Origin: Formosa sp. Hel1_33_131
GTDB lineage: Bacteria; Bacteroidota; Bacteroidia; Flavobacteriales; Flavobacteriaceae
Direction: 5' to 3'
DNA length: 32,000 bases
Assembly (NCBI RefSeq): GCF_001735745.1
Contig: NZ_CP017260.1
Coordinates: 930,001-962,000 of the forward strand
A program made the position numbers and the translations under genes. This document shows positions 1,047-19,494 of the stretch, piece by piece; within the stretch, counting starts at the first letter, position 1; each line of letters begins with the position of its first letter. The notes below the pieces were generated by a model. The model was not told the DNA's origin. It worked only from the letters and a program-made list of their open reading frames with translations, and ran no database searches.

Positions 1047-3908
1047 TTATTTTAAATTAATACTTAATCTCGCAAAAAGGAATCTCCCATTGGTTCCAAA
1101 CTGCTGTGCTCTACGTGAGAAGATAAACCTTCCATCGCTCGTGTTTCCTTCTGAATTTTTATCTGGATACATATCCAATAAATTATTGGCTCCAACGGTG
1201 AACGTTACACTGTCATTATAGTCATAAGAAGCAGATAAATCCGTGACAATTTTGGATGCAAATTCTTGTCCTGTTGTACTTGTAACTTCTCCGAAATATA
1301 CATTTCTTAAAAATAGATTCCACTTATCAAAAGAAATTGTATGTGATAAATTCACTTTTTGGTTGACAGTTGCGTCTTCTAAAAAGATTCTAGAACTTTC
1401 ACTAAAATAGCGATCCAATTGACCTCCATTTACTAAAATTTGGGAGGCGTGAATATCATCAACTTGTCTTGTTTGAGAGAAAGACCCAGACAAATCTGTT
1501 TTAATTCTGGTGTTATTTATAGTCCCTTTGTGTGTAATCACAACATCCAAGCCCTTAGTTTCCGTATCAATGGCATTGGCAAAAAATGCAGCTTTACCAG
1601 CTCCGGCGTCCTTAAAAGCTTTCACTAATTCTGTAGAAATAGGATTTCCATCGCTATCATAAGCTGAGAATGTATCTGTTAATGTAACTCTGTCTTCGAC
1701 AGCTATAAAGTAGCCATCTACAGCAATTTTAATATTTGCTTCTGATAAGTTTGCTGTAAATCCAACACTTGCACTTGCAGACTCTTCTTGTTTAAGTTGC
1801 GGAATTCCTAATCCATCTTCTTCATCTGCAACTCTACTATCATTAGTAAACACTCCAACCTCTTCAGCTTTACCCTTGTTATTAAACTGTGTGGCTGTGG
1901 CATTGTAGTATATTTGGTGTAAAGAAGGTGCTCTAAAACCTGTACTTACTGCACCACGTAAATTAAAGCTATCACTTAATTTGTAACGAGAGGCTATTTT
2001 GAAATTTAACGTAGAACCAAAATCACTGTAACTTTCAAATCTTAAGGCTCCCGTCAGTAGAAATTTAGAAGTAATATCGGCTTCTATATCTAGGTAAGCA
2101 GCGGCACTGTTTCTATATCCTGACAAGGCGTTTTCTGGTCTAAAGCCTGGGAAACCTTGTGAACCTCTTTGGTACGATCTTCCAAAAAAGTCGGGTGCAT
2201 GGTCATAGTTGGCATGAGAGGCTTCTTCCCCTTCTAGAATTTGATAGTTTTCTAATCTGTACTCTGCTCCAAAAGCAACATTTAAACCTTCCAATGTGTT
2301 TTCAAAGAATTTAGAAACATCTAAGTTGGTGGTGTTTTGAGAGAACGCAAATCCACCTGCAGTAAATGTTGAAGAAGATGCTATACCTTGTGAGGCATTA
2401 AATGAATTAGAGACGGTGAAGTCAAAACTATTTTTTCCCCAAGTGTTACTGAAATCTATATCCCAATCGCCTGCTTTTCCTTTAATTCCTACGGCTAAAG
2501 ACTTGTCTTTAATATCCGAATTAATATTTGGTAAAAAACCATTTAGATTGATATTTGAGTATGACCTTGATTGATTTGGTAATCTATAGAAGGCCCCTGC
2601 ATTCCCTTTTCTGTAGCTTAGACCTCCAAATGCATAAAACTCAGTCCCATTATCTCCAATCGGCAACGAAATGTTTGCCATAAAGCGTCCGGATCTTAAA
2701 TTGGATTGACCAACTCTCATGTTATAGTCTTCACGTTTTTGCCCTCTTGCTGTAAGTTCTGCTTCGGTAAAATCAATTGGACCATTACTATCAGATAATA
2801 ATGCTACCAAATCTGCTTGTGATGTTGCAGCCCCTATAGCACTTTGAAGTTCTGGCGTAAAATAATCGACGCCTTGCGCAAAAAACTGCATTTGATCAAA
2901 AGATAAATTATCTACATTTGCTCCACTTGCTGCGGCGACTCTTTGTATGGCATTGTATCCATGAAATATATCTCCCGTGAAACGCTCCATTCTATTGGTT
3001 GATTTGCGAGTTTCAATATCTCCAGTAAAGTTAATATACCCTCCATTGTCTCCTAAATCAATTCCGTAATTAATACTTGCATTGACTGTTTCTCCATCTA
3101 CGCCTCCTGTGAGACTGTTAGCATTTGAAGAAAAATTTGCTCCTGAAGTTACATTTACTGCAAGTTCGTTGGTGTTCTTTTTTAATACAATATTAATAAC
3201 ACCGGCAATAGCGTCTGAACCATATTGAGCAGAAGCACCATCACGTAGTATTTCAACGCGACTGATCGCTGCTGAGGGAATTGCGTTTAAATCCGTTCCT
3301 ACAGAACCTCTACCCACCGTACCATTCACATTTACTAATGATGTGGTGTGTCTTCTTTTTCCGTTAATCAGTACCAATACTTGATCCGGTCCAAGCCCCC
3401 TTAAAGAGGCTGGATTGATGTGATCCGTTCCATCAGAAATTGTTTGTGTGTTAGATGCGAAAGAAGGCGCAACATAATTCAGGATTTGATTTATGTTTAC
3501 TTGTGGCCCTAGTGTTGTCAATTCCGAAATATCAATAACATCAACAGGCACTGGTGTGTCCACTGCTGTTCTGTTGGCATTTCTTGATCCAACAACAACT
3601 TCATCCAAAGAAACTCCTGATGATAAAACAACATTAACAGTTGATCCACCATCCATGGTCATCTCTTTTGAATTAAACCCTATATAAGAGTAAACCAAAA
3701 CATCTCCTTGAGAAACACTCAAAGAGTAGGAGCCATCAAGATCGGAAGATGTTCCGTTTGTAGTCCCTCTAACACTTACAGAAACTCCAGCTAAGGGGTC
3801 ATTGTAGTCATCTGTAACAATTCCACTAACCTCATAAGTTTGAGCTAGTGCTGAAAATGACACAAGAAATAGTGTCAAAAAAAAGTAATTTTTTAATTTC
3901 ATAATCAT
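1047..3908 (-). CDS. TonB-dependent outer-membrane receptor with a carboxypeptidase-regulatory-like N-terminal domain
   Basis: 953-aa ORF with a signal peptide (..FSALAQ). N-terminal beta-sandwich: YEVSGIVTDDYNDPLAGVSVSVRGT..GDVLVYSYIGF. Plug-domain motifs: DVIDISEL, NPASLRGLGPDQVLVLINGKRR, GVINIVLKK. A long C-terminal region has alternating-hydrophobic beta-strands typical of a 22-strand barrel. Confidence 0.9.
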   Translation of the reverse strand: MIMKLKNYFFLTLFLVSFSALAQTYEVSGIVTDDYNDPLAGVSVSVRGTTNGTSSDLDGSYSLSVSQGDVLVYSYIGFNSKEMTMDGGSTVNVVLSSGVSLDEVVVGSRNANRTAVDTPVPVDVIDISELTTLGPQVNINQILNYVAPSFASNTQTISDGTDHINPASLRGLGPDQVLVLINGKRRHTTSLVNVNGTVGRGSVGTDLNAIPSAAISRVEILRDGASAQYGSDAIAGVINIVLKKNTNELAVNVTSGANFSSNANSLTGGVDGETVNASINYGIDLGDNGGYINFTGDIETRKSTNRMERFTGDIFHGYNAIQRVAAASGANVDNLSFDQMQFFAQGVDYFTPELQSAIGAATSQADLVALLSDSNGPIDFTEAELTARGQKREDYNMRVGQSNLRSGRFMANISLPIGDNGTEFYAFGGLSYRKGNAGAFYRLPNQSRSYSNINLNGFLPNINSDIKDKSLAVGIKGKAGDWDIDFSNTWGKNSFDFTVSNSFNASQGIASSSTFTAGGFAFSQNTTNLDVSKFFENTLEGLNVAFGAEYRLENYQILEGEEASHANYDHAPDFFGRSYQRGSQGFPGFRPENALSGYRNSAAAYLDIEADITSKFLLTGALRFESYSDFGSTLNFKIASRYKLSDSFNLRGAVSTGFRAPSLHQIYYNATATQFNNKGKAEEVGVFTNDSRVADEEDGLGIPQLKQEESASASVGFTANLSEANIKIAVDGYFIAVEDRVTLTDTFSAYDSDGNPISTELVKAFKDAGAGKAAFFANAIDTETKGLDVVITHKGTINNTRIKTDLSGSFSQTRQVDDIHASQILVNGGQLDRYFSESSRIFLEDATVNQKVNLSHTISFDKWNLFLRNVYFGEVTSTTGQEFASKIVTDLSASYDYNDSVTFTVGANNLLDMYPDKNSEGNTSDGRFIFSRRAQQFGTNGRFLFARLSINLK

Positions 3909-4245
3909 TTGGGGTTAAGTTTATAATTTGAGGACAATATATAATTTTTTATTTAAAAAAATAAATGATTCTTATTTAAAGTGAGTTTAAATTACATAAT
4001 TCATTGTTAAAAGCAAGTTATACTGGTGATTTCATTTTACAATTAAATTAGAGCCATAAACTGAAAGTATGATCTTAATGGCACAATAAATAGGGTGAAA
4101 ATCAGAAACTGAAATTAATAAATTATAATAAAGTTCATCTATACTTAATGGTCATTCACCTAAAGAAGTCTCATGTTAGTCAAACCTAAAACAATTATTA
4201 TATGTAAATAAATTATTTTTATAGAATAAATACTTGTTTTAAATT

Positions 4246-4659
4246 TTGAATAACATACTAAATATTTTACTGATAGAAGATAATTCTATTGAGATCATGA
4301 AAATGAAAAGAACTGTTTCCTTTTTAAAATTAGAGCATACTATAAATGAAGCCGAAAATGTAGATGAAGCTCTTGAGTTTTTAAAAGATCGAAGTAGAAT
4401 TCCTGATATTATTTTATTAGATTTAAACATGCCAAAGATAAGTGGAATAGAATTTTTATCAATTTTAAAGAATGATGAAAACTTAAAATACATACCCACA
4501 GTCATTTTAACAACATCTAACAATCAAAAAGATATCATAGAATGTTATACAATTGGTATATCAGGCTATATTCTAAAACCTTTAAAATATGAGGATTACG
4601 TTAAAAAAATTGAGAGAACTTTGGCTTATTGGAGTATAAACGAATTAAGAAGAACTTAA
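4246..4659 (+). CDS. Stand-alone receiver-domain response regulator (CheY-like, no output domain)
   Basis: 137 aa. REC signature residues are intact: LLIEDN (acidic pair), IILLDLNMPKISG (phospho-acceptor Asp), VILTTS (Thr) and GYILKPL (Lys-Pro). The start is TTG at 4246, because in-frame TAA lies at 4240-4242 and no ATG precedes the REC core. Confidence 0.85.
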   Translation: MNNILNILLIEDNSIEIMKMKRTVSFLKLEHTINEAENVDEALEFLKDRSRIPDIILLDLNMPKISGIEFLSILKNDENLKYIPTVILTTSNNQKDIIECYTIGISGYILKPLKYEDYVKKIERTLAYWSINELRRT

Positions 4660-4795
4660 AAAATGGAACATCCTCAATACAAGTCAAAAAATCTTTAAGA
4701 AATAACTAAAAGGAGGTAACATACTTGCAGTGAGCCTGCCTACCGCAGTTAGGCGCAGTTGAAATGTGACTGTTAAAATTAATATATATAAACAT

Positions 4796-5335
4796 ATGAA
4801 AGGGATCGTTTTTACAGAGTTTTTAGATTTAGTAGAAATTAAATTTGGTTTAGGAATGGTTGATAAAATCATCAATCAATCAAAATTAGAATCTGAAGGA
4901 ATCTATACATCTATTGGCACCTATAGTTTTTCCGAAATGTTGCAATTATTACAACATTTGAGTGCACAAACAGACATTTCAATAGATGGATTGTTATTGA
5001 CTTACGGAGAACATTTTTTTAGTGTTATAAAAAAAACCTACCCAGGTCTTTTAGCGACTTATAAAGACCCCATAGAAATGCTGTCATCCATAGAAAACCA
5101 TATTCATATAGAAGTTCGAAAAATATATCCTGATGCAGAATTCCCTACGTTTATAGTTGAAGAGAAAACAGAAAACTCTCTTATTATGATTTATAAATCT
5201 GGTAGGGCAATGCATCATTTTGGGTTGGGTTTAATGAACAAAACATTCGAACATTTTAATTCTACAGCTTCTATTGTTTTAGAAAAAATAAAAGAAGATG
5301 GCACCGAGGTAAAATTTATCATTACCAAGAATTAA
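4796..5335 (+). CDS. hnoX: H-NOX (heme nitric oxide/oxygen-binding) sensor protein
   Basis: I moved the start from the track's GTG 4766 to ATG 4796, giving the canonical H-NOX N-terminus MKGIVFTEFLDLV. The candidate proximal heme His lies in ..IENHIHIEVRKIYP.. (compare DEVHLQLTKM in the Thermoanaerobacter H-NOX). The heme-propionate YxSxR motif is present as YKSGR. Length is about 179 aa. The stop overlaps the kinase start (TAATG). Confidence 0.85.
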   Translation: MKGIVFTEFLDLVEIKFGLGMVDKIINQSKLESEGIYTSIGTYSFSEMLQLLQHLSAQTDISIDGLLLTYGEHFFSVIKKTYPGLLATYKDPIEMLSSIENHIHIEVRKIYPDAEFPTFIVEEKTENSLIMIYKSGRAMHHFGLGLMNKTFEHFNSTASIVLEKIKEDGTEVKFIITKN

Positions 5336-7314
5336 TGAGTCTAGAAAAAGTTGAAATATTAGACCGTGCGCTCAAAAGAGAAAAAGCTGCCCGAAAAGCT
5401 GCGGAAAGGATATTAGAAGAAAAATCTAGAGATTTATACTTTATATCGGAAGAACTAAAAGACGCCAACCTTCAATTCGAAAATCTTTTAGTCGAAAAAT
5501 CGTCTCAACTTCAGGGGGTTTTTGAAAACATAAATGATGCCTATTTAGTAATTGATTTAGAAGGGGAGGTTCTAAAAATGAACGATGTAGCCACAGAATT
5601 TTTTGGATACAACATTGATAATGAAAAAGTAAATGCCACCTGCTTAATCTATCCTAAAGATAAAGATTACGCCTTTAATTCTTTTAAGAAATTAAAAAAA
5701 CAAGGGTTTTTCACAAACTATGTAGCAAGGATACTCACTAAACAAAAAGAAATTAAATGGGTACAGATTAATGCAACCATTATTTTTAATAAAGAAAAAA
5801 AAGCTATTGGAGCGCAGGGGATTGTAAGAAATATTACATCCAATAAAGAAGCAGAAGACTTACTGATACAATCAGAAAAAAGACTGTCATCTCTCATTTT
5901 AAACTTAGATAGTGGAATCCTTTTAGAGGATGAAAAAAGACAAATCGTATTGACAAATACTAAGTTTTGTGCACTTTTTAAAATCCCAGTATCTCCAGAA
6001 TTATTGATTGGAGAAGATTGTTCTAATGCATCAGAACAAAGCAAAGTATTGTTTAAAGATCCAGAACAGTTTGTAACCAGAATTAATGAGATACTTAAAA
6101 ACAAAAAACAAGTTTTAGCAGATGAAGTCATAATGACAGATGGTACAATTTTAGAACGCGATTTTATTCCTATTGTAATTGGTCCTAAATATCAGGGTCA
6201 TTTATGGGCTTATAGAAATGTCACGCTCAAAAGGCAGTACAGCCAAAGTCTAGAAAGTCAAAAAGAAAAATACAGTAGCATTATAGCCAATATGAATTTG
6301 GGATTGATGGAGGTCAATAACAATAATGAGATACTGACGGTAAACCAAAGTTTTGTAGAGATGTCTGGTTATTCCGAGAAAGAGTTGCTTGGCGAGATTG
6401 GTGAAAATGTTTTTATAAAAAATAAAGACTTCGAAATCCTCCCCGATCAAAGTAAGAATCGTTCAAAAGGCAAATCGTATTCTCGCGAAATTACAATACA
6501 AGATAAAAAAGGAGTTAACAAAAGTTGGCTTAGTAGTGAGGCTCCAAATTATAATCTGAATGGAGAGATCGTTGGTTTTATAGGGATACATCTAGATATT
6601 ACAGAATTTAAATTACTAGAAAAGCAGAACGCAAAAATATTGATAGAATTAGAAAAAAGGAATAACGAATTACATGAATATGCACATATCGTTTCTCATG
6701 ATCTTAAAGCGCCTTTAAGAAGTATTGATGCCTTAGTCTCTTGGATTAAATCAGATAATAAAGGTAAACTGGATGAAGTCACAGTTCAAAACTTTGAATT
6801 GATTGAGGAAACATTGGAAACAATGGAGAGTTTAATTTTTAATGTTTTAGAATACTCAAGTGCAGGGGTCGCTATAGAAACCATAAATGAGGTAGACTTA
6901 AATTTGATTCTTGAAGATCTAAGGAAAATTATACTTATCCCAGAAAACATCTCTGTAATTATTTTAAAAAAACTACCTATTGTTAAAGGAGATATCACTA
7001 AATTTAAACAAATTTTTCAAAATTTAGTGAGTAATGCTGTAAAATTTTCTGATAAAGAAAAAGGAATCATTGAAGTTGATTTTAATGAAGAAGGATCCTT
7101 TTATCTGTTTTCTGTAAAAGACAATGGAATTGGTATTGATGAAAAACACCATGATAAAATTTTTAAAATTTTTCAGTCATTAAATAAAAGTAAAGAGTCC
7201 ACAGGCATTGGTTTATCGATCGTGAAGAAAGTCGTTGAGTTATACGAAGGAGATATTTGGCTAGAAAGTGAAGAAGGCAAAGGAACTACTTTTTATTTTA
7301 CTATAAAAAAATAG
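5335..7314 (+). CDS. Cytoplasmic multi-PAS sensor histidine kinase (H-NOX-associated, no receiver domain)
   Basis: 659 aa with no TM segments. N-terminal coiled coil (LDRALKREKAARKAAERILEEK) followed by repeated PAS-like blocks. H-box HEYAHIVSHDLKAPLRSI, N-box FQNLVSNAVKFS, G1 VKDNGIGI, G2 GIGLSIVKKVVELYEGDIWLESEEGKGTTF. Translationally coupled to the H-NOX gene. Confidence 0.9.
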   Translation: MSLEKVEILDRALKREKAARKAAERILEEKSRDLYFISEELKDANLQFENLLVEKSSQLQGVFENINDAYLVIDLEGEVLKMNDVATEFFGYNIDNEKVNATCLIYPKDKDYAFNSFKKLKKQGFFTNYVARILTKQKEIKWVQINATIIFNKEKKAIGAQGIVRNITSNKEAEDLLIQSEKRLSSLILNLDSGILLEDEKRQIVLTNTKFCALFKIPVSPELLIGEDCSNASEQSKVLFKDPEQFVTRINEILKNKKQVLADEVIMTDGTILERDFIPIVIGPKYQGHLWAYRNVTLKRQYSQSLESQKEKYSSIIANMNLGLMEVNNNNEILTVNQSFVEMSGYSEKELLGEIGENVFIKNKDFEILPDQSKNRSKGKSYSREITIQDKKGVNKSWLSSEAPNYNLNGEIVGFIGIHLDITEFKLLEKQNAKILIELEKRNNELHEYAHIVSHDLKAPLRSIDALVSWIKSDNKGKLDEVTVQNFELIEETLETMESLIFNVLEYSSAGVAIETINEVDLNLILEDLRKIILIPENISVIILKKLPIVKGDITKFKQIFQNLVSNAVKFSDKEKGIIEVDFNEEGSFYLFSVKDNGIGIDEKHHDKIFKIFQSLNKSKESTGIGLSIVKKVVELYEGDIWLESEEGKGTTFYFTIKK

Positions 7315-7316
7315 CT

Positions 7317-7634
7317 ATGGAACAACCTAATTTAATCTATATTGACAAGCTGGCTAATGGTGATGAATCTGTTAAAAAAAGACTTATCGAGATCATTAAA
7401 ACTGAATTTCCTAAAGAGAAAAAAGAGTACCTCCTAAGTTTAGAAAATCTTGATTATAAAAAAATTGAAGAAAATGTTCATAAACTTAAACATAAAATTA
7501 GTATACTAGGACTTGAAAAAAGTTATGAAATAGCAAATAAATTTGAACATAAACTTAGAGATCAACGTTTAATTGATTCTAAAAGTTTTGAGGGAATTTT
7601 AATAAAAATTTCAGAATATTTAAAAACGATTTAA
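7317..7634 (+). CDS. Histidine phosphotransfer (Hpt) domain protein
   Basis: 105 aa and predicted all-helical. The Hpt-type motif ENVHKLKHKISILGL matches HxLKGxxxxxG-like consensus. Starts 2 nt after the kinase stop and ends 5 nt before the LytTR regulator gene. Confidence 0.7.
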   Translation: MEQPNLIYIDKLANGDESVKKRLIEIIKTEFPKEKKEYLLSLENLDYKKIEENVHKLKHKISILGLEKSYEIANKFEHKLRDQRLIDSKSFEGILIKISEYLKTI

Positions 7635-7639
7635 ATTCT

Positions 7640-8344
7640 ATGAATTGTATTATTATTGATGATGAAGAAACTGCAAGAGTGATCATTAGAACGCTTTGTG
7701 ATGAAATAGGAAATTTAACTATTATTGACGAATTCCCTAACGCCATTCAAGCTATTAAATTCCTTAACGAAAATGAGATAGATCTTATTTTTTTAGATAT
7801 TCACATGCCCGATTTTAGTGGATTAGATTTTATTAAAGCATTAAAAAATCCACCTAAAATAATTTTAACAACATCCGATACAAAATTTGCAATTGAAGCT
7901 TTTGAATATGATTGTATTATAGATTATTTATTAAAGCCAATCGAAAGACCAAGATTTGAAAAAGCGATTTTAAAAACCAAAAAACACCAAGCTGTAAATA
8001 CTTCAAATACGAGCATTGCAGATTTAAATCACAAAAACGATTTTTATGTGAATATCGATAGACGTCTGATAAAAATTGATTTGCCTGAAATTTATCTTAT
8101 AGAGGCAAAAGGAGACTATATTCATATAAAAACAGAAGACAAAAATTATGTGGTACATTCTACATTGAAAAAAATAGAAGAGAAACTGCCAGAATCATTA
8201 TTCCTAAAGGTGCATCGCTCCTACATAATCAACGTTAAAAAAATTATTGATATCGAAGATAATAGTGTTTTAATCAAAAAAGATGTCATCCCTGTGAGTC
8301 GTTCTAACCGACCTGAATTGATGAAACGATTGGATTTGTTATAA
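7640..8344 (+). CDS. LytR/AlgR-family response regulator (REC + LytTR DNA-binding domain)
   Basis: 234 aa. REC: IIIDDEE, LIFLDIHMPDFSG, IILTTS, DYLLKPI. The C-terminal LytTR pattern is ..IYLIEAKGDYIHIKTEDKNYVVHSTLKKIEEKLPESLFLKVHRSYIINVKKI. Confidence 0.9.
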   Translation: MNCIIIDDEETARVIIRTLCDEIGNLTIIDEFPNAIQAIKFLNENEIDLIFLDIHMPDFSGLDFIKALKNPPKIILTTSDTKFAIEAFEYDCIIDYLLKPIERPRFEKAILKTKKHQAVNTSNTSIADLNHKNDFYVNIDRRLIKIDLPEIYLIEAKGDYIHIKTEDKNYVVHSTLKKIEEKLPESLFLKVHRSYIINVKKIIDIEDNSVLIKKDVIPVSRSNRPELMKRLDLL

Positions 8345-8406
8345 TGATTTCATCTATATAAGCATAGCCGTTGACCTACAGTATTTGGGAGGCCTAGAGG
8401 TTTCGT

Positions 8407-10470
8407 CTATTTTTTGAATAAAGGTTTCTTGAAAAGGTACCATTTAAACCTCAAACCAATTTCCGTAAATTTAAAACCTGCAGCAGACGCAGAAGCTATG
8501 TTACTCTGCAGCCCGTAAATGTTTAGAGCACTTCTTTCCTTAAATTTATATCCTAATTTTCCTTGAATTCTATAGGTACTTTGTTTTTGATCATCTTCTA
8601 TAAATTGATACCCAGTTGCTGCCGTTAATTCATAAAACCATTCATTATTTTTTGCAATATTTTCATCTTTTATTAGATTCACAAAAACTTCAACGGCATT
8701 AAATTTACGAGGACTAAAATAAATGGTAGGCACTGTCTTTTTAAAAGATATATTCTGGTAATTAAATCCTGCTTTTAATGACGGCTTATCTAAAATGCTG
8801 TAGTACAATGATGTAAATAGTAGGTTTCGTGTATTGTCATCATTTTGAAACGTGTAATAATATTGGGTAAACCATCCCAACCTAAAGTTAGTGTTTAAGC
8901 TGTAATTCACTAAAAAATTATTCTGTACAATTTCTCTATCTAACAGCTCCGCATTAAAATTTTGCAATTCTCTTTTATATCCCAATTCTAAATTCTGAAG
9001 TTTAAACGGCTTAATCTTCAAAGAAAAATCGGCTAATAGTTGGCTGTAATTTATTGTTTCTGTGTTTGATGAAGTGATGCCTAAACACCCTTTAAACGTC
9101 AAATTATTTAAGATTTGATAGAATATTCCCGCTAAAAAATTATTAGATTTAGCACTCATATTCGTAACCGAATTAGCGGTTGTTCTGTAATTATAGCTTG
9201 CTAATAGCTTAAGTTTAGTTGTAAAGGAAAATTCAGAATTAGCAGTATAAGAATAGGCTTCATTATTGCCATTATCAAAAGAGTACGAGGCTTTAGTTTC
9301 TATAAAAGGCGTGAAATGTCTATCTAAACTTTTAATGAAATTAGTCGCATCTTTTTGATTCTTATAAAAATTTAAGGTGTTTTTTGCACTCTTATAAGCC
9401 GCATCATAATAGCCAGAAGCTTTAAGTGCATTCGCTTTACCAAGGTTTCCATCAAAAGAAGTACTGTCGTTTTTTAAGATTAAATTATAATCAGAAATAC
9501 TTTTTTTAAAATCGCTTTTGTAAATGTTCAATGTCGCTCTTAACGCTAAAATCCAATTTTCTAAGTTTTTATTTTTCAACACTAAGTCATCAATCTCCTT
9601 TTCTGCCAAGGAATACTTCTTGTTCCAAATCAATGCTTGAATGTATCTTTCTGTCGTTTGGTTTTTTAAAGAAACATCCGTTTGCTCTGTGAGACTGTCA
9701 AACGCCGTTTGACTCACAACTAAAGCGGCTTTGTCATTACTTTTTAAATGTTCGGCGAGTGCAATTCCGTTTAACGATATGAATCGATTTGCGGGCGTGT
9801 CTCCTATAATTTCATAAATCTCTTTTGCCCTATCCATTTGATTTGAGATTAAATACAGATTTGCAAGATTCAATAACGTTTCTTTATCATTTGTAAAGTC
9901 CTCAAAATTTTCTTTCAATAGGGTTTCTGCTTCCAAATAATTTTGAAGCTTCATTTTATCGTTTGCCAATCCTAAACGCATATATTTTTTGGAAATCAAA
10001 GCATTTTTGTTTTTGGGCAACACAATTAGTGCTTTATCAACATAAATAATAGCATTCTCAAACTCTTTAAGATTAGACAACGTATTTGCATACCCTAAAA
10101 GCGCAGGGAAACTTGTGTCGTTTTCTTTTAGTAAATTTTGATAATAGCCTTTTGCGGAAGTATAATCTTTATTCCAAAGCAGCGCTTCTGCATAATTTAA
10201 TTTGACTTCAAAATCTGTTGGAAAATCATCTAAAAGAGCAGTGAATAAACGTACAGCTTTTTTTGAATCGCCATTTAAGCCAATCGCTCTCCCATAACAA
10301 AGACGTGCTGTTTTGTTGCTCGGATAGGTCTGTAATACTGTTTCAAAAAAGGTTTCTGCTAGTTTGAACTTACCGGTTTCTAAATAAGCGAAGCCCGTTT
10401 TCATTTCTTGAGAAACGCCACAAAAACTAATAAAGAAAGCGATTAGTAATGTACTATATTTTAATTTCAT
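8407..10470 (-). CDS. Outer-membrane protein: N-terminal TPR array plus C-terminal beta-barrel (PelB/PgaA/BcsC-like architecture)
   Basis: 687 aa with signal peptide MKLKYSTLLIAFFISFCGVSQE. About 370 aa of TPR-like helical repeats (FAYLETGKFKLAETFFETVLQTYPSN.., AEALLWNKDYTSAKGYYQNLLKEND.., YANTLSNLKEFENAIIYVDKAL..). The last ~290 aa have short alternating-hydrophobic strands rich in Y/N/S/T (ASYSFDNGNNEAYSYTANSEFSF.., LGYKRELQNFNAEL.., FTEIGLRFKWYLF). Confidence 0.7.
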   Translation of the reverse strand: MKLKYSTLLIAFFISFCGVSQEMKTGFAYLETGKFKLAETFFETVLQTYPSNKTARLCYGRAIGLNGDSKKAVRLFTALLDDFPTDFEVKLNYAEALLWNKDYTSAKGYYQNLLKENDTSFPALLGYANTLSNLKEFENAIIYVDKALIVLPKNKNALISKKYMRLGLANDKMKLQNYLEAETLLKENFEDFTNDKETLLNLANLYLISNQMDRAKEIYEIIGDTPANRFISLNGIALAEHLKSNDKAALVVSQTAFDSLTEQTDVSLKNQTTERYIQALIWNKKYSLAEKEIDDLVLKNKNLENWILALRATLNIYKSDFKKSISDYNLILKNDSTSFDGNLGKANALKASGYYDAAYKSAKNTLNFYKNQKDATNFIKSLDRHFTPFIETKASYSFDNGNNEAYSYTANSEFSFTTKLKLLASYNYRTTANSVTNMSAKSNNFLAGIFYQILNNLTFKGCLGITSSNTETINYSQLLADFSLKIKPFKLQNLELGYKRELQNFNAELLDREIVQNNFLVNYSLNTNFRLGWFTQYYYTFQNDDNTRNLLFTSLYYSILDKPSLKAGFNYQNISFKKTVPTIYFSPRKFNAVEVFVNLIKDENIAKNNEWFYELTAATGYQFIEDDQKQSTYRIQGKLGYKFKERSALNIYGLQSNIASASAAGFKFTEIGLRFKWYLFKKPLFKK

Positions 10471-10593
10471 TTGTAATTTTTTATCTACAGTAAGTTAAGC
10501 ATTAGCTATTAATGATTGACCGAAACAAAACGACCTTTCAACGATAATAGAGCTCTATTGGAAGTTATTAAGAAGATATTTACGCCACTATTA

Positions 10594-10902
10594 ATGATGA
10601 ATAAATTAATTATGACGTTACAAATTTTTGAAAAAAATGAGATATTTTATTTAAACGGAAGATTAAACAGGTCAACGTTAAAATCTTTCATCTCTTATTT
10701 TGAATACAATTTATCTCGAAATAAAAATGTAATCATAAATATTGATAACGTCATTGAAATTGATAAAAGTGGTCTAGAAGCCATGCGCAATTTTGCAAAG
10801 GTTGCAATCTTAAAACAAAAAGTATTTTCTATTGTTGGAAATGGTTGTAAAGAAATCTATGACGATTTTAAACAAACCAACCTTGCAGAATTAGCGCGTT
10901 GA
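10594..10902 (+). CDS. STAS-domain protein (anti-sigma-factor-antagonist/SpoIIAA-like)
   Basis: The track ORF starts at TTG 10516. I prefer ATG 10594 (MMNKLIMTLQIFEKNEIFYLNGRL..) or ATG 10612. The STAS pattern is VIINIDNVIEIDKSGLEAMRNF, with the DxSG Ser in the position phosphorylated in SpoIIAA. The MOP transporter gene starts 11 nt downstream. Confidence 0.6.
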   Translation: MMNKLIMTLQIFEKNEIFYLNGRLNRSTLKSFISYFEYNLSRNKNVIINIDNVIEIDKSGLEAMRNFAKVAILKQKVFSIVGNGCKEIYDDFKQTNLAELAR

Positions 10903-10913
10903 AAATCTAAATT

Positions 10914-12188
10914 ATGATTGCAAAACCCATCCCCTTTAAAGATAAATTCTCTACGGAGCAACTATTTATGATGAGTGCAATGCTTGTCAATGGGGGTAAT
11001 TATTTATATAATTTAGTGTTAGGCAGATTTCTAGGTCCCGAGAAATTTGCAGATGCGGCAATTCTAATCACCTTACTATTAGTGTTGTCTTTTGCTGCAA
11101 TGACATTTCAATTGGTCACTGCAAAATTTTCAGTGATTTTTGAGAATTCAGTGCTTCAATCGTTTATAGCAACTATTTACAAAAGTGCTACTGTTGTTGG
11201 CGTTGTTTTAGGAATCACAATTGTTTTGGTATCCTCAGAGTTACAAGAATTTTTCAAAACAACATCATCTAGTATGTTTGTTGTTTTTGGAATTGGCATT
11301 CCTTTTTACTTCTTAATGAGTGTGAATCGGGGCGTTTTTCAAGGTCAAAAAGAATGGATTCCTTTATCTGCGACCTATCAATTAGAAATGATGAGTCGGT
11401 TAGCAATTACTTTTGGATTGCTATGCCTTTTTGAAGTGGATTCGTCACTATTAATTGCCATTGGAATTATATGCTCATTTATCGTTGGTCTACTTCCATT
11501 TGAGTTTAACCCCCCCCCCTTTTTTAATCGTATCAAATTAAAGAAATCAGAAACCAAAATGGTACGTAATTTTTTTATAATTACGGCGTTTTATGAGGTC
11601 ACACTTATTGTCATTAACAACAGTGACATCTTATTAGTGAAACATTATTTCGAACCTTATGAAGCAGGCTTATATGCATCCTTAGCATTGATTGGTAGAG
11701 TCGTGTATTTTATAGCTTGGATGTTTGTCATGTTGTTATTACCAACCGTCGTGCAACTAAAAAAACAGGGCATATCTACAAGACCTATTTTATTTAAATA
11801 CGTTATTTATATTATTATAATTGCAGCCTCTATTGTTTTAGCGTGCTACTTGTTTCCGAATCAAATTATCAATATCTTATTTGGAAACGAGTATGTAGGG
11901 ATTGCTTCTTTATTGTGGAAGTATGCTTTCGCAACAGGTGTTTTTGCGGTCTCAAATATTTTCGCCTACTATTATTTATCTCTAGACAAGTATATTCCCG
12001 TAATCTTTTCGGGGGTTTTTGGTGTGTTACAGATAGCTTTAATCATACAATTTCATGCGTCTTTAGAGCAAATTGTTCATCTTCAAATTTTTGCGATGAT
12101 TTTACTGTTAGGAGTACAGATAACCTTCTTTATTTTAAACGATATGATCTCTAAAAATAAGAGCCTGAAGAATCTTTCTCACCATTAA
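10914..12188 (+). CDS. MOP-superfamily polysaccharide transporter / flippase-like membrane protein (Wzx/PelG-like)
   Basis: 424 aa and highly hydrophobic, about 12 predicted TM segments in two halves. The N-terminal block FMMSAMLVNGGNYLYNLVLGRFLGPEKFADAAIL is typical of polysaccharide-biosynthesis (PST/Wzx) proteins. Confidence 0.75.
   Translation: MIAKPIPFKDKFSTEQLFMMSAMLVNGGNYLYNLVLGRFLGPEKFADAAILITLLLVLSFAAMTFQLVTAKFSVIFENSVLQSFIATIYKSATVVGVVLGITIVLVSSELQEFFKTTSSSMFVVFGIGIPFYFLMSVNRGVFQGQKEWIPLSATYQLEMMSRLAITFGLLCLFEVDSSLLIAIGIICSFIVGLLPFEFNPPPFFNRIKLKKSETKMVRNFFIITAFYEVTLIVINNSDILLVKHYFEPYEAGLYASLALIGRVVYFIAWMFVMLLLPTVVQLKKQGISTRPILFKYVIYIIIIAASIVLACYLFPNQIINILFGNEYVGIASLLWKYAFATGVFAVSNIFAYYYLSLDKYIPVIFSGVFGVLQIALIIQFHASLEQIVHLQIFAMILLLGVQITFFILNDMISKNKSLKNLSHH
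11510..11525 (+). repeat. Homopolymeric C10 followed by T6 inside the MOP transporter CDS (candidate slipped-strand phase-variation tract)
   Basis: Read directly as aaC CCC CCC CCC TTT TTT, encoding N-P-P-P-F-F. It is by far the longest G/C run I found by eye in the window; the next longest were C6 runs. Confidence 0.9.
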
Positions 12189-12208
12189 GCAATAGAGACA
12201 CATGAATC

Positions 12209-12227
12209 ATCTATAACTAAATCTCGA
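12209..12227 (+). promoter_or_regulatory. Conserved 19-nt element, copy 1 (atcTATAACTAAATCTCga), 12 nt upstream of the GT-B gene start
   Basis: 17/19 identity with 19413..19431, including a 12-nt perfect core ATAACTAAATCT. Function unknown. Confidence 0.3.
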
Positions 12228-12238
12228 CACCAAAAAAA

Positions 12239-13426
12239 ATGAAACTAGCAATCGTCACTGCATATCCCCCAAGTAAAGTCACATTAAACGAATATGCATT
12301 TCATTTAGTAAAAAGCTTTAGACAAAACAAAAAAGTAACTGAATTAATTTTACTAACCGATGAAACTCCAGGGAAAAAAGAAATTTATTTCACAGAAGAT
12401 GGATGTGAAGTTACGGTAAAAGAGTGTTGGAAATTTAATAGCTATTCGATTGTTTATAATGTGGCCAAAGCCATCCATAACACAAAACCAGACGCCGTAT
12501 TATTTAACTTACAATTCATGAAGTTCGGCGATAAAAAAATTGCAGCAGCACTAGGCTTAACCCTCCCTTTAATTTGTAGAATAAAACACGTTCCAACAAT
12601 CGTATTACTTCACAATATTTTAGAACAAACAGACTTAGAAAATGCTGGTTTTGCCTCAAACAAACTTTTGCAAATAGTCTATACGTTTATAGGAACGTGT
12701 TTAACAAAACTAATTTTAAAAGCCGATCTCGTTGTGGTTACTATGGAGAAGTACGCGGCCAATTTAAAAGAAAAATATAAAGTAACTAATGTAAAAATGA
12801 TCCCTCATGGTACCTTTGAAACTCCAAGGAAACCATCACATAAACTTCAAAATGGCACTCTAAAAGTAATGACTTTTGGGAAATTCGGAACCTACAAAAA
12901 AGTGGAATCACTGATTGAAGCTGTGGAAAAGGTTAGAGACTATTCTGGATTGGATTTAGAAGTTGTAATTGCGGGTACAGACAACCCAAATGTGGTGGGC
13001 TATTTGGCTAACGTAAAAGAAAAATACAAACATATCTCTCAAATCACTTTTACGGGCTATGTGGAGGAAAACCAAGTAGAAAGATTATTTAATGAAAGTG
13101 CAGTCGTAGTGTTTCCCTATACCTCTACCTCCGGAAGTTCGGGTGTTTTACACCAAGCTGGAAGTTATGGCAAAGCTGTAATCATGCCCAATTTGGGTGA
13201 TTTAGCAACTCTAATCGAAGAGGAGGGTTACAGAGGTGAATTTTTTAAACCAGAAAGTGTAGATAGTTTAGCAACTGCAATTGAAACCGTTGTAACAAAT
13301 GATGCGTACAGAGTCGCGTTGGGGAATGCAAACTACAAGGCCGCTACGGCGTTTCCAATGGAAAGAATTACGAATCTTTATATAAATGAATTTCAAACTA
13401 TCATCGATGAAAAACACATTTCATAA
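12239..13426 (+). CDS. GT-B fold glycosyltransferase (group 1 / GT4-like, PelF-like position)
   Basis: 395 aa, soluble. The N-terminus MKLAIVTAYPPSK.. and overall layout are typical of group-1 transferases. The C-terminal donor-binding region is VVVFPYTSTSGSSGVLHQAGSYGKAVIMPNLGDLATLIEEEG. The usual E-x7-E acidic pair appears replaced (S..Q), so the family assignment is approximate. Confidence 0.7.
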   Translation: MKLAIVTAYPPSKVTLNEYAFHLVKSFRQNKKVTELILLTDETPGKKEIYFTEDGCEVTVKECWKFNSYSIVYNVAKAIHNTKPDAVLFNLQFMKFGDKKIAAALGLTLPLICRIKHVPTIVLLHNILEQTDLENAGFASNKLLQIVYTFIGTCLTKLILKADLVVVTMEKYAANLKEKYKVTNVKMIPHGTFETPRKPSHKLQNGTLKVMTFGKFGTYKKVESLIEAVEKVRDYSGLDLEVVIAGTDNPNVVGYLANVKEKYKHISQITFTGYVEENQVERLFNESAVVVFPYTSTSGSSGVLHQAGSYGKAVIMPNLGDLATLIEEEGYRGEFFKPESVDSLATAIETVVTNDAYRVALGNANYKAATAFPMERITNLYINEFQTIIDEKHIS

Positions 13427-13434
13427 CCCTTCCT

Positions 13435-14949
13435 TTATTTAGAAATATACTCGAAAGCAGGTTTTTTAACTCCTTTGCTATTGATAAACCCAAACTCTTT
13501 TTGGGGGTTGACTCGCCACGGGAGCACCCCAACAACTTCTTTTGGGATTGTATCAAAATCATACAAGGTCCAAGACATAAAAGAGAGGTTCTTTTTTGTA
13601 AGGATTTTTTGCATTTCTTTATAATAGCCTGCTTGAATTTTTTCAGAATTACCGAAAGGTTTCCATGCACCGCTATAAGAAGAAACCCCAAACTCCCCTA
13701 AAACAATAGGTTTGTTGGGAATTAATTTTTTTAAAAATTCGTATTTTTCTTCAAACTCATGGACATCCTCATAATAATGAAAGGACACAAAATCTAAGTT
13801 ATCTTTTAAAATTTCTGCACTCTTAATATTAGACCACCCAATTGTAACTGCATGGTTTTTATCAATAGATTTTATAAGAATAATAAGATGTTCTAACCAA
13901 GAAATAACCAGTTCCTTCCCTCTAGACTCAAAGTCTAAATTGGGTTCGTTTTTAACGTCCCAAGCGAGGATGGCCTTGTGATCTTTAAATTTGGATACAA
14001 TAATTTCTGCGTGTCTGTGATTTAAAGTCCAATCTAAAACATCATAATCTCCATAAAAATCAAACAAGGTGACGACAACTTTTAAGTTGCTTTTTTCAGC
14101 AGCATCTAAGACTTGTTTTAGTTTGTTCAACTTTGGCTCTTTGACCTTCGCTTTTCCAAAATCTTTATAAGGAACAAAGATTCTAATCGTGTTTAGGCCC
14201 GCTTTCATAATAATTTCAAAATCTTTCTCGATGATAGTAAGATCGAAATTTTCACCAAACATATCCCAAGGAGTGGCTTGTGGATAGTAATTAATCCCTT
14301 TAATGTTCGAGGAACCTAAAAGAGATGGAAGAGTCGTTTTATCAAATTCCGAGGTACGTTCTTTTACCAAATGTCTGATCCGCCAAAAACCGTCCTCTAA
14401 CAAAAAGAGGCCTTTATAGTCAGATGTTTCTGTAGTTTCAATGACGAATGCATTGTCTTTAATAAACTTCTTGTATTCAATAACATTTTTGTCTTCCAAA
14501 ACAAGCAACTGTCCATCTTCACTAAAAAATAATATATCTGGATTGTGTGCTAAGGTGGTACTCTCTATCGCTATGTTTTCCTCTTTATTATGTTCTATAA
14601 AATTGAATAGATTTTTTCTAGCACTTTTGGTATAAAAATCATCAATCCCATTTTTTAAATTGGTTTTGTTGGCAATATGTTTTACATACCATGCATCTAA
14701 ATAATCATTTTCAATGCTGCTTAATGTTTGTGGATCCATATATCGACCTTCATTACCGTCATCTTTCCAACTGATTTTTGGTGTATATTGATCTATTTTT
14801 TTTACTTCTGTATGCAACATTGAACTTCGATCTGCACCCGTATTAAAGTAACTAAACAGAGAGCTTATTAAGAAAATTAATATAGAAATTATCACAAGAT
14901 ATGAGATAATTAACACACTTCTCAAAATAATTTTGTTTGTATTTACCAT
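13435..14949 (-). CDS. Membrane-anchored glycoside hydrolase, GH5-like (clan GH-A TIM barrel)
   Basis: 504 aa with an N-terminal TM anchor (SVLIISYLVIISILIFLISSLF) and a ~190-aa linker domain. The GH-A signature residues follow in order: GLNTIRIFV (Arg), ILAWDVKNEPN (acid/base NEP), VSFHYYED (His-x-Tyr), PIVLGEFGVSS (nucleophile Glu) and MSWTLYDF (Trp). The start overlaps the stop of the upstream gene (ATGGTAA). Confidence 0.75.
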   Translation of the reverse strand: MVNTNKIILRSVLIISYLVIISILIFLISSLFSYFNTGADRSSMLHTEVKKIDQYTPKISWKDDGNEGRYMDPQTLSSIENDYLDAWYVKHIANKTNLKNGIDDFYTKSARKNLFNFIEHNKEENIAIESTTLAHNPDILFFSEDGQLLVLEDKNVIEYKKFIKDNAFVIETTETSDYKGLFLLEDGFWRIRHLVKERTSEFDKTTLPSLLGSSNIKGINYYPQATPWDMFGENFDLTIIEKDFEIIMKAGLNTIRIFVPYKDFGKAKVKEPKLNKLKQVLDAAEKSNLKVVVTLFDFYGDYDVLDWTLNHRHAEIIVSKFKDHKAILAWDVKNEPNLDFESRGKELVISWLEHLIILIKSIDKNHAVTIGWSNIKSAEILKDNLDFVSFHYYEDVHEFEEKYEFLKKLIPNKPIVLGEFGVSSYSGAWKPFGNSEKIQAGYYKEMQKILTKKNLSFMSWTLYDFDTIPKEVVGVLPWRVNPQKEFGFINSKGVKKPAFEYISK

Positions 14950-19231: not shown

Positions 19232-19412
19232 ATTTATGGAGGGCTCATTTTCATTATTGTAAATGTAAATCTTAAAAATGTCTCCTGAAATTTTTTCAAC
19301 TTAGGCAAACTTCCATTCGCCTAAACAAAAGCTACTTTAGAACTTTACGACCCCTATTTATTAGGAAACAAAACTACTTTTGAAGTCATTTAAGTAATGA
19401 TAATTATGAAAG

Positions 19413-19431: not shown

Positions 19432-19494
19432 TTCCTAATGGAATGATCAAATGGATGTAACATGTAATCATTAAAAATCAATAAAAAATAACAC

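Follow-up and report, generated by a model that had tools for sequence, protein, structure and literature searches.

A putative nitric oxide-responsive multi-step two-component operon of marine Flavobacteriaceae with a REC/Hpt relay to a LytTR regulator

Organization of the operon and its proteins

Analysis of a 32-kb window of the marine flavobacterium Formosa sp. Hel1_33_131 (NZ_CP017260.1, positions 930,001–962,000) revealed five co-directional genes on the forward strand between 4246 and 8344, encoding in order a stand-alone receiver (REC), an H-NOX protein, a PAS kinase, a stand-alone Hpt protein and a REC-LytTR response regulator. An earlier note on this DNA had described the same gene set, and every ORF was located where it had been placed. 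The junctions it reported were also read from the sequence: the H-NOX stop overlaps the kinase start (TAATG), 2 nt (ct) separate the kinase gene from that of Hpt, and 5 nt (attct) separate the latter from the regulator gene; the first of these, the +539 junction, recurs at the same position among relatives. All of the domain assignments were correct in Pfam searches. The REC and H-NOX genes are separated by a species-specific spacer of 136 nt (4660–4795, + strand), as compared with only about 3–20 nt in most relatives. Its GC-rich stretch (about 4726–4765) is confined to six identical metagenome contigs and absent from relatives, and folding of the spacer gave no signal (z 0.06). A terminator-like hairpin with a T-run follows the last gene (8389–8413, + strand) and could mark the operon end; it is the sole such site in 3900–8450, a count not above that of shuffled sequences.

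The REC (4246–4659, + strand; 137 aa) is Rcp1/BphR-like and contains Pfam Response_reg only (77 bits). Its TTG start lies immediately 3' of an in-frame TAA, and a REC of 137 aa is likewise predicted by gene callers on the identical metagenome contigs. The best PDB matches are single-domain response regulators that partner phytochromes (6xvu, E 2.5e-25; RcpA, RcpB and Rcp1) and Legionella 2QVG. The Asp, Thr and Lys residues are intact, as the earlier note had observed, with D59, T89, T90 and K111 found in 80/80 orthologs and E11 and D12 in 78/80, the remaining two being gapped there. D59 is proposed as the first phospho-acceptor.

The H-NOX haem NO sensor (4796–5335, + strand; 179 aa; Pfam HNOB 131.6 bits) starts at the ATG at 4796 and not at the GTG at 4766. 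Over its entire length it shares 88% identity with PDB 6BDD/6BDE, the crystallised H-NOX of Kordia algicida; the protein is in this respect already known, through a structurally characterised counterpart. Residues H104, P117, Y133/S135/R137 and F142 are present in 81/81 orthologs. The adjoining soluble kinase (5335–7314, + strand; 659 aa) has a PAS-PAS-PAS-HisKA-HATPase_c architecture, with three PAS regions, HisKA (31.9 bits) and HATPase_c (96.7 bits) identified by Pfam and no Response_reg domain found by the same search. The H-, N-, G1- and G2-boxes listed earlier are all present (H455, N567, 596–600 and 624–626, respectively), and bacteriophytochrome kinases are among the best PDB matches of the kinase core. 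In Silicibacter the kinase is inhibited by its NO-bound H-NOX (PMC4436077), and NO may, by analogy with characterised H-NOX/kinase pairs, inhibit the Formosa kinase.

The 105-aa Hpt (7317–7634, + strand), with a phosphorylatable H55 in the motif HKLKH, scored 21.8 bits against Pfam Hpt, below the gathering score of 24.6, whereas its Kordia ortholog scored 30.7 and lies above it. The AF2 model is a helical bundle (pLDDT 93, pTM 0.85) and its top nine Foldseek matches in the PDB are all Hpt proteins or domains, including 3myf (TM 0.80), HptB (TM 0.77) and BarA (TM 0.73); the identity given to this product in the earlier note, which had been made dependent on its fold, is therefore upheld. H55 aligns with the phospho-His of the RcsD Hpt in the family profile. 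The protein resembles canonical Hpt (Ypd1, LuxU, HptB and the RcsD and ArcB Hpt) in its fold, its H-x-L-K phospho-His context, with L(+2) and K(+3), and its G(+10), and H55, H59 and G65 are conserved in 74/74 orthologs. It differs from them at H+4, where an invariant His (H59) replaces the Gly or Ser of 97% of Hpt sequences and where His occurs in 0.12% of about 10,000. With bulky, large or charged residues at H+4, Ypd1 hardly accepts phosphate from its upstream receiver, and in kinase DHp domains this position governs phosphatase activity (PMC6341664).

The regulator (7640–8344, + strand; 234 aa; Pfam Response_reg 64.7 bits, LytTR 77.2 bits) is proposed to be the terminal acceptor, at D53, and the transcription factor. 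Residues D7, D8, D53, T78 and K99 are found in 77/77 orthologs, and its DNA-binding domain evolves slowest (mean distance 0.11). The best PDB match of its receiver is 6m8o, deposited as 'DNA-binding response regulator' and presumably a LytR-family receiver; the usual partners of such receivers are LytS/AgrC-type kinases. The α1 helices of the REC and regulator receivers differ strongly, so that a single DHp surface would probably not suit both to the same extent.

A candidate operator and its possible targets

Upstream of the operon lies a candidate LytTR operator (4134–4167, + strand) composed of the direct repeat TTCATCTATACTT (4134–4146) and a degenerate copy, TTCACCTAAAGAA (4155–4167), 21 bp apart from start to start. 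It is located about 112 nt upstream of the REC start codon, and in nearly all loci the corresponding distance is constant at about 116 nt; the repeat pair has a spacing of exactly 21 bp in 65/77 loci with the consensus cATTCGTC[G/T]ACACTT. In a PWM scan of the 32-kb window the operator scored 21.0 bits and no other position reached 8 bits; the highest score among 20 shuffles was 8.6. An operator of at least 15 bits is found upstream of REC in 72/76 relatives (median 47), as compared with 21 bits in Formosa sp. Hel1_33_131, where the second repeat is degenerate. Dimers of AgrA-type LytTR proteins bind pairs of direct repeats that precede promoters (PMC4227749), and the regulator is predicted to bind those found here. 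The arrangement resembles that of the LytTR/AgrA-AlgR regulators in its REC and LytTR domains, in a pair of direct repeats that lie about two helical turns from each other in front of the regulator's own operon and in the predicted autoregulation, and differs in the repeat sequence (TTCGTCKACACTT), which is not the AgrA consensus. The normal direct partners of those regulators are LytS-, AgrC- or FimS-type membrane kinases, whereas the kinases of this operon are only of HisKA type and an Hpt is interposed.

In relatives, the operator is also found on the same strand upstream of DUF6923/DUF4114 proteins with a Por_Secre_tail (T9SS), of a CAP lipoprotein and of STAS-flippase operons. Genes for a STAS protein, a flippase and a glycosyltransferase adjoin the H-NOX operon in several genera, and in loci L028, L032, L047, L080 and L038 the orthologous STAS or flippase genes have an intact 21-bp operator upstream. 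The Formosa window contains the corresponding genes on the + strand, encoding a STAS protein (10612–10902; weak Pfam STAS match), a polytopic flippase-like protein (10914–12188) and a GT1/GT4 glycosyltransferase (12239–13426; Pfam Glycos_transf_1). They are preceded by a degenerate remnant of a second operator (10480–10528, + strand) with the half-sites TTTATCTACAGTA (10480–10492) and TTGACCGAAACAA (10516–10528) at a spacing of 36 bp instead of 21 bp, and no PWM site of at least 8 bits lies upstream of these genes in the window. By analogy with the relatives, they are candidate members of the regulon. No T9SS target gene was found within the 32 kb. The window also contains, 13 kb further downstream, a nitrosative-stress-like gene cluster.

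The earlier note had also suggested a possible branch of the relay to a REC-GT2 fusion (19495–20703, + strand; Pfam Response_reg 87 bits, Glycos_transf_2 74.6 bits). Nothing was found that links this protein to the relay, and the window scan gave no operator near it.

Conservation of the cluster among Flavobacteriaceae

The same gene order was observed in 76 species-level Flavobacteriaceae loci, which argues that the arrangement is not due to chance. REC, H-NOX, kinase, Hpt and LytTR regulator occur in constant order in 73 of the 76, from genera including Polaribacter, Kordia, Tenacibaculum, Dokdonia, Algibacter, Lacinutrix, Winogradskyella and Olleya, and in each of the five proteins the catalytic residues do not vary among the 74–81 orthologs. 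No hybrid kinase was found among the 76 loci; REC, Hpt and LytTR regulator thus accompany non-hybrid kinases in many genera, which supports the view that the relay parts belong together. Moreover, none of the 254 ORFs between H-NOX and regulator contains a receiver domain, leaving the stand-alone REC as the only in-operon Asp source for Hpt. In 49 loci a second input module, consisting of FIST and a second non-hybrid kinase whose H-box is almost identical, is inserted between kinase and Hpt.

Three Polaribacter loci lack Hpt, with no remnant of it, and retain REC, H-NOX, kinase (with an unchanged H-box), LytTR regulator and operator. It therefore appears that this Hpt is dispensable for supplying the regulator. 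The REC clade associated with these loci is divergent (49–55% identity, as compared with 74–79% for the regulator). Distance-matrix correlation, a weak analysis, gave no sign of co-evolution between kinase and REC (r about 0.1–0.2).

The proposed relay and its alternatives

The operon is read as an NO-responsive multi-step two-component system in which a REC/Hpt relay leads to LytTR and a transcriptional output, a reading to which we assign a probability of roughly one half. It would probably convey an NO signal from the haem sensor to a gene switch, with phosphate carried by four separate proteins in turn. H-NOX and the soluble PAS kinase are translationally coupled; the former would gate autophosphorylation of the latter at H455, as judged from characterised pairs, and the phosphoryl group would then move to D59 of the Rcp1-like REC, to H55 of Hpt and to D53 of the regulator. 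The confirmed parts, the Hpt fold, the invariant residues and the conservation of the cluster make this His-Asp-His-Asp order the best-supported, if still hypothetical, reading. The regulator would bind the repeats upstream of REC and autoregulate the operon; in relatives it may also drive T9SS-secreted surface proteins and the STAS-flippase-glycosyltransferase polysaccharide operon, making the system an NO-to-adhesion/biofilm switch that acts via transcription and not c-di-GMP. In the two thirds of species that have them, FIST and the second kinase would feed the same relay, with REC as a Spo0F-like collection point. Counted against this reading are the Hpt-less loci, the His at H+4 and the poor kinase-REC distance correlation, as well as the degenerate operator repeat, the disrupted site of the polysaccharide operon and the lack of a T9SS target in the window.

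The first three of these observations would also suit a branched circuit, in which the H-NOX-gated kinase phosphorylates LytTR directly, REC competes by draining off phosphate or exerting feedback, in the manner of LovR, CheY sinks or DivK, and the role of Hpt is confined to moving phosphate back and forth between REC and regulator, by which it adjusts how long the signal lasts. The Hpt-less loci keep the rest of the operon, the operator and the kinase H-box, the His at H+4 is predicted to slow transfer from REC to Hpt, and the REC of the associated clade has diverged further than its regulator. This circuit is possible but less likely, as an Hpt with an invariant H55 is present in 73/76 loci, the usual partners of LytR-type receivers come from other kinase families and the α1 helices of the two receivers speak against one DHp surface for both. 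Furthermore, the kinase core is related to bacteriophytochrome kinases and REC to their Rcp/BphR partners, families that form cognate pairs elsewhere, making kinase to REC the natural first step.

The invariant HKLKH, the rarity of its second His, the subthreshold Pfam score in Formosa and the role of H+4 in DHp phosphatase activity could instead indicate that the 105-aa Hpt-fold protein is not a phosphotransferase and that H55 and H59, one helical turn apart, make it a phosphatase-like or connector protein, or one that binds a metal or ligand and modulates one of the receivers. This appears improbable given the match of fold, flanking residues and the RcsD phospho-His alignment to canonical Hpt, the relatives that exceed the threshold and the fact that the operon would otherwise have no means to connect its two receivers. 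It is likewise doubtful that two systems are merely juxtaposed, with an H-NOX/kinase/single-domain-receiver trio next to an Hpt-LytTR pair that receives its phosphate from hybrid kinases encoded elsewhere in the genome, of which the window covers 32 kb and which could hold such kinases. Such a trio does exist alone in Legionella, where Hnox2 adjoins a kinase and a CheY-like receiver (PDB 2QVG) homologous to REC. The 2-nt and 5-nt junctions, the order kept in 73 species, the one conserved operator upstream of the first gene and the insertion of a second non-hybrid kinase in 49 loci with the unit unbroken all argue against independent units.

Returning to the His-Asp-His-Asp relay, it shares with the H-NOX/HnoK systems (Shewanella HnoX-HnoK-HnoB/C/D, Vibrio HnoX-HqsK-LuxU and Silicibacter H-NOX-HK-Hpt-DGC) a stand-alone H-NOX co-transcribed with a cytoplasmic kinase, with the Silicibacter and Vibrio circuits an Hpt step and with Shewanella HnoC transcriptional feedback on its own operon. 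It differs from them in its non-hybrid kinase, in an intermediate Asp carried by a separate polypeptide, the product of the first gene, in an output that is a LytTR factor and not a c-di-GMP enzyme, LuxU/LuxO or an HnoC-type regulator and, in many relatives, in the FIST-kinase second input. The statement in the earlier note that H-NOX circuits end in c-di-GMP enzymes or LuxU was incomplete, HnoC being a DNA-binding regulator within an H-NOX network. The new wiring it had put forward stands in that the literature searched contained no paper linking H-NOX with LytTR and none on a flavobacterial H-NOX pathway; the H-NOX itself is not new. As in the Bacillus subtilis phosphorelay (KinA-E, Spo0F, Spo0B, Spo0A), each module is its own protein, several soluble PAS kinases would converge on a single-domain receiver and an autoregulated transcription factor would end the chain. 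Here, by contrast, the second His carrier is a monomeric Hpt four-helix bundle and not the dimeric DHp-like Spo0B, all the genes are gathered in one operon and a haem gas sensor provides the input. Bacteriophytochrome/Cph1 and Rcp1/BphR are among the closest solved relatives of the kinase core and REC; the Formosa operon has no phytochrome photosensory module and takes its input via a separate H-NOX. The output of Rcp1/BphR single-domain receivers is generally unknown, whereas this operon offers a plausible downstream route, through Hpt to LytTR. In these bacteria, the cluster probably links NO sensing to control of its own operon and, in relatives, to surface-adhesion and slime genes.

Organization of the operon and the H-NOX sensor

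Five co-directional open reading frames were found on the forward strand at 4246-8344 of the window, in agreement with the arrangement that the earlier note had read from the sequence. The first encodes a stand-alone receiver, REC(4246), at 4246-4659, for which Pfam returned Response_reg and no other domain, and it is followed by H-NOX (4796-5335; Pfam HNOB, 131.6 bits), a histidine kinase (5335-7314; three PAS regions, HisKA, and HATPase_c in Pfam, with no receiver), an Hpt protein (7317-7634; Pfam Hpt, 21.8 bits, slightly below the gathering score of 24.6), and a LytTR regulator (7640-8344; Response_reg, 64.7 bits, and LytTR, 77.2 bits). The junctions described in the note, a TAATG overlap between H-NOX and kinase, a 2-nt gap between kinase and Hpt, and a 5-nt gap between Hpt and regulator, were all confirmed, and the overlap, with H-NOX directly adjoining a histidine kinase gene, is consistent with co-transcription of the two. 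REC starts at a TTG codon directly 3' of an in-frame stop. A scan of 3900-8450 for sigma-70 promoters and terminators, a type of scan ill-suited to Bacteroidota promoters, gave counts not above those of shuffled sequences.

REC and H-NOX are separated by 136 nt (4660-4795), and because this gap is only about 3-20 nt in most other species, the spacer is a peculiarity of the window species. It includes a GC-rich stretch (GCAGTGAGCCTGCCTACCGCAGTTAGGCGCAGTTG) inside a region of otherwise 26% GC, the core of which was found, among the 86 loci fetched, only in six metagenome contigs carrying the identical locus. The spacer was considered as an RNA element or a LytTR site and rejected as either, being species-specific and having neither a folding signal nor an Rfam match.

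The H-NOX protein itself is already known, with 88% identity to PDB entries 6BDD and 6BDE, which we take to be Kordia algicida H-NOX (Hespen et al. 2018). Residues H104, P117, Y133, S135, and R137 are invariant across 81 sequences, and both the proximal haem-ligating histidine and the YxSxR haem-propionate motif of the HNOB fold are present. Residue 71, the "glycine hinge" (window 5006-5008), is glycine in the window and alanine in 73 of the 81 orthologs, 6BDD (but one of the two PDB entries) among them; an alanine at this hinge is reportedly the subject of the 2018 work by Hespen and colleagues. F142 presumably occupies the distal pocket position predicted by a +2 offset from Y140 of Tt H-NOX, where an NO-selective pocket would lack the H-bonding Tyr. 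In Silicibacter, NO-bound H-NOX alters kinase autophosphorylation (PMC4436077).

Conservation and variation in Flavobacteriaceae

Scanning the H-NOX protein against one genome per species gave 309 relatives, the best 80 of which all belong to Flavobacteriaceae, with 80-88% identity to H-NOX. In a separate protein search, the closest 120 clusters among the matches listed had at least 81% identity, and the sampled contexts were again from Flavobacteriaceae. When the window proteins were aligned by tblastn, essentially every locus of sufficient length had REC directly upstream, a kinase start overlapping the H-NOX stop, and Hpt followed by the LytTR regulator downstream of the kinase. The kinase start was at +539 from the H-NOX start wherever its N terminus could be aligned (about 40 of 80 loci), and an ATG reading frame opens at this same offset in about 70 of 76 loci. 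Orthologs show no variation at the catalytic residues of any component, and the cluster is a conserved unit.

Three layouts were distinguished among the 76 loci reaching the regulator. The five-gene layout of the window was found in 24, whereas 49 have seven genes, in which a FIST-domain protein of about 379 residues and a second, receiver-less HisKA-HATPase_c kinase of about 349 residues (e.g. locus L010, 10523-12716), both absent from the window species, account for the extra length between the first kinase and Hpt. The remaining three loci, all from Polaribacter, lack Hpt (L053, 10256-10498; L063, 5087-5332; L056, 10259-10380). An Hpt pseudogene was sought in these three and discarded, as three-frame translation of the 120-240-nt gaps revealed no remnant. 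In L025, which belongs to this clade as well, a divergent Hpt with 42% identity is retained. The kinase of the Hpt-less loci carries a GAF domain and has an unchanged H-box, and the regulator is well conserved, whereas REC is divergent, at only 49-51% identity to that of the window. This pattern leaves room for direct transfer from kinase to regulator.

The first kinase ranges from about 400 to 826 residues among relatives, with PAS and GAF domains gained and lost. The absence of a receiver domain from the window kinase, as claimed from the sequence, was upheld by Pfam and extends to the kinases of the 76 loci; a hybrid kinase hidden in the relatives was likewise rejected, with a receiver HMM matching none of the 254 reading frames between H-NOX and regulator.

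Candidate routes of phosphotransfer

The window kinase has H455, N567, a G1 box at 596-600, and a G2 box at 624-626, and both its HisKA and HATPase_c domains score above the Pfam thresholds. REC(4246) has a full acidic pocket together with the required Thr and Lys, with E11, D12, D59, T89/T90, and K111 all invariant. Among the closest solved relatives of the kinase core are bacteriophytochrome kinases, and the closest PDB match of REC(4246) is the bacteriophytochrome (BphP) regulator of D. radiodurans (6xvu, E = 2.5e-25), followed by RcpA, RcpB, and Rcp1. The receiver of the LytTR regulator has its best match in 6m8o, deposited as a "DNA-binding response regulator" and, we assume, a LytR-family receiver; LytTR regulators are usually partnered with LytS-, AgrC-, or FimS-type kinases. 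Because of this kinship of kinase core, REC, and the receiver of the regulator, transfer from the kinase to REC is favored, and the kinase would serve REC rather than the regulator directly. Hpt could then adapt the signal from kinase and REC to a receiver of foreign type, that of the LytTR regulator. REC(4246) also matches Legionella 2QVG, a CheY-like protein encoded beside an Hnox2-associated kinase (PMC8738867). In the seven-gene loci, the second kinase has an H-box and DHp helix 1 nearly identical to those of the first, which fits with both kinases converging on the same receiver, as in Kin-Spo0F. Raw distance-matrix correlations were 0.68 for REC and the LytTR receiver, 0.53 for REC and Hpt, and 0.22 for REC and the kinase core, values too confounded by shared phylogeny and by extraction of the kinase core to tell which receiver co-evolves with the kinase or Hpt.

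The 7317 product, which matches a Formosa sp. Hel1_33_131 protein at 100% identity and was described in the earlier note as an Hpt, was predicted by AlphaFold2 to be a helical bundle (pLDDT 93, pTM 0.85). A Foldseek search of the PDB gave Hpt proteins or domains for all nine top matches and Hpt entries for most of the lower list. TM-scores were 0.80 for Shewanella 3myf, 0.77 for P. aeruginosa HptB, and 0.73 for BarA, at modest E-values, and plant AHPs and Ypd1 were also among the matches. The family profile aligned H55 with the phospho-histidine of the RcsD Hpt domain, H55 and G65 are invariant in an alignment of 41 sequences, and the Kordia ortholog scores above the Pfam Hpt threshold. In view of the fold, profile, and Kordia evidence, the assignment as a four-helix Hpt bundle, in which H55 would be the solvent-exposed, phosphorylatable histidine, is sound, and the outcome named in the earlier note as refuting its reading, a product without the Hpt fold, was not observed.

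The protein is nevertheless an atypical Hpt. Its motif reads H55-K-L-K-H59 (window 7479-7493), placing histidine at the H+4 position where a small residue (Gly or Ser) is expected, and this histidine was found in 74 of 74 orthologs. A survey of about 10,000 Hpt sequences found Gly at H+4 in 87%, with Ser accounting for 10% and His for 0.12%; Ypd1 accepts almost no phosphate from its upstream receiver when H+4 is replaced by a large or charged residue (PMC6341664). Biochemically, the invariant H+4 histidine is the chief reservation about a simple relay. H55 and H59 lie one helical turn apart and could form a metal site.

A linear relay from kinase to REC to Hpt to LytTR regulator, proposed in the earlier note with H-NOX gating the first step, is given a probability of about 0.5. 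The interpretation in the note is thus supported in part: the opening transfer has gained support from family kinship, REC lying close to the partners of bacteriophytochromes, and the remainder is less secure, with the H+4 histidine as a caveat and the Hpt-less loci leaving room for direct transfer. A branched or direct circuit, in which the kinase phosphorylates the regulator itself, is consistent with the Polaribacter loci, where H-box and regulator persist beside a divergent REC and no Hpt; the kinship of the kinase and REC points the other way, and we consider such a circuit less likely than the linear relay. The unusual H+4 residue also bears on a role for the Hpt-like protein as a modulator without transferase activity, which, given a predicted fold and an aligned phospho-histidine typical of Hpt proteins, seems improbable. 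Equally improbable is a mere juxtaposition of two systems, one an H-NOX-kinase-receiver trio and the other an Hpt-LytTR pair, in a cluster that recurs with the same gene order.

Predicted output, genomic setting, and meaning of the circuit

A candidate operator for the LytTR regulator, a pair of direct repeats (consensus cATTCGTC[G/T]ACACTT), was identified upstream of REC in nearly all loci. The repeats are spaced exactly 21 bp start to start in 65 of 77 loci, which are all those with a good pair, and their distance to the start of REC is constant (median 117 nt). The window operator (4134-4146 and 4155-4167) has a degenerate second repeat; its score is 21 bits, where the loci have a median of 47. 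No other position in the 32 kb reached 8 bits, the best of 20 shuffles giving 8.6. The position weight matrix scan thus yielded no additional operator, and none in front of the receiver-glycosyltransferase fusion (REC-GT2), while matches to single half-sites were at chance level. Repeats of 9+12-bp geometry are typical of AgrA-type regulators. Such LytTR proteins are characterized by direct repeats that occur in pairs, with a spacing of two helical turns, in front of the operon encoding the regulator itself (PMC4227749), and the predicted operator appears to share this arrangement.

In relatives, the operator recurs in the same orientation just downstream of the regulator gene, where it precedes genes for proteins of about 860 residues (DUF6923 and Por_Secre_tail) and about 814 residues (DUF4114 and Por_Secre_tail), a CAP-domain lipoprotein, or a STAS-flippase-GT1 operon. 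The STAS-flippase-GT1 genes also adjoin the operon in the window, where the site is disrupted, with half-sites 36 bp apart, and homologs of the T9SS target proteins of relatives were not found in the window. From the operator positions in the window and relatives, the predicted output is therefore autoregulation together with surface and adhesion functions, a prediction for which the clade offers good support and the window species less. Some relatives have an extra operator copy about 900 nt upstream of H-NOX (L028, 7129-7170; L045, 7052-7093; L072, 7027-7068; and others), preceding a small unannotated reading frame of about 93-109 residues 5' of REC; the window has no equivalent.

The operon is followed by a polysaccharide-type (exopolysaccharide-type) cluster (8407-21137), and several genera show synteny between parts of this cluster and the H-NOX operon. 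It includes a TPR-containing, probable outer-membrane protein (8407-10470, reverse strand), STAS, a 12-TM flippase-like protein, GT1/GT4, a GH5-like hydrolase, an invasin-D3-like protein, and a 1029-residue polytopic membrane protein (the last three on the reverse strand), REC-GT2, and a GT2-like reading frame of 143 residues. About 13 kb downstream of the operon is a nitrosative-stress-like cluster (21196-28572, forward strand), comprised of an Rrf2-family regulator, a truncated globin, a tryptophan-dioxygenase (TDO)-like protein, a 2Fe-2S ferredoxin, an Fe-S assembly protein, a RIC/YtfE di-iron repair protein that passes its equivalog cut-off, and a divergent haem-copper oxidase pair, CcoN-like (589 residues) and CcoO/cytochrome c-like (333 residues). 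The pair falls far below the cbb3 equivalog cut-offs and is possibly an NO reductase-type enzyme. This cluster fits with NO as a relevant signal for the organism. The window also contains a TonB-dependent receptor gene with a CarboxypepD_reg N-domain (1047-3908, reverse strand), divergent from the operon and called as two genes in metagenome contig L001 (6260-9113), which suggests a frameshift or assembly error there, and a tRNA gene (28633-28714, reverse strand; Rfam, 60 bits). An M28 peptidase that ends in the T9SS sorting domain Por_Secre_tail is encoded at 30240-31595 (reverse strand).

To our knowledge, H-NOX signaling has been worked out almost wholly in Proteobacteria, in pathways ending in c-di-GMP turnover or quorum-sensing relays, and our literature search found neither a paper joining H-NOX to LytTR nor a description of a flavobacterial H-NOX pathway. 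The Silicibacter and Vibrio systems have an Hpt step with a hybrid kinase, whereas the window kinase is non-hybrid and its receiver is a separate protein; a DNA-binding regulator with feedback is found in Shewanella HnoC. The Bacillus Spo0 relay is alike in logic, but Spo0B is a dimeric DHp-like phosphotransferase and the window carrier a 105-residue, monomer-type true Hpt fold, so that the system is not a Spo0 member. Likeness to bacteriophytochrome pairs extends no further than the kinase core and partner receiver; the PAS-GAF-PHY photosensory module is missing from the window kinase, which in Pfam has PAS as its only sensory domain type. The regulator shares the N-terminal receiver and C-terminal LytTR domain of AgrA, AlgR, and LytR. 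The system is thus built of known parts, and its proposed wiring and output are new and widely conserved.

Tentatively, we suggest a Spo0-like relay of Flavobacteriaceae, in which NO (through the H-NOX kinase) and the ligand of the FIST kinase would be integrated on a free receiver and passed through a double-histidine Hpt to LytTR, acting on its own operon, T9SS adhesin-like proteins, and exopolysaccharide. If true, NO would be linked to surface attachment independently of c-di-GMP, and a downstream path would for the first time be defined for a single-domain receiver of the Rcp1 type, a class whose downstream role the window locus could explain. The defined operator sequence and a candidate regulon of T9SS surface proteins and the polysaccharide operon make testable predictions, for which natural variants with or without FIST-kinase input and Hpt serve as built-in controls, and the H+4 histidine offers a rare natural case for ideas on Hpt-receiver catalysis. 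To a two-component specialist the circuit would not be shocking; it is clean, open to testing, and of ecological relevance. The wiring, which differs from that of proteobacterial H-NOX, extends over more than 70 species of bloom-associated marine Flavobacteriaceae, among them Kordia, which is algicidal, and Tenacibaculum, a pathogen of fish. Marine Flavobacteriaceae live on algae and algal polymers. Because NO is given off by algae, diatoms included, these bacteria could plausibly use the circuit to sense a host as they attach.
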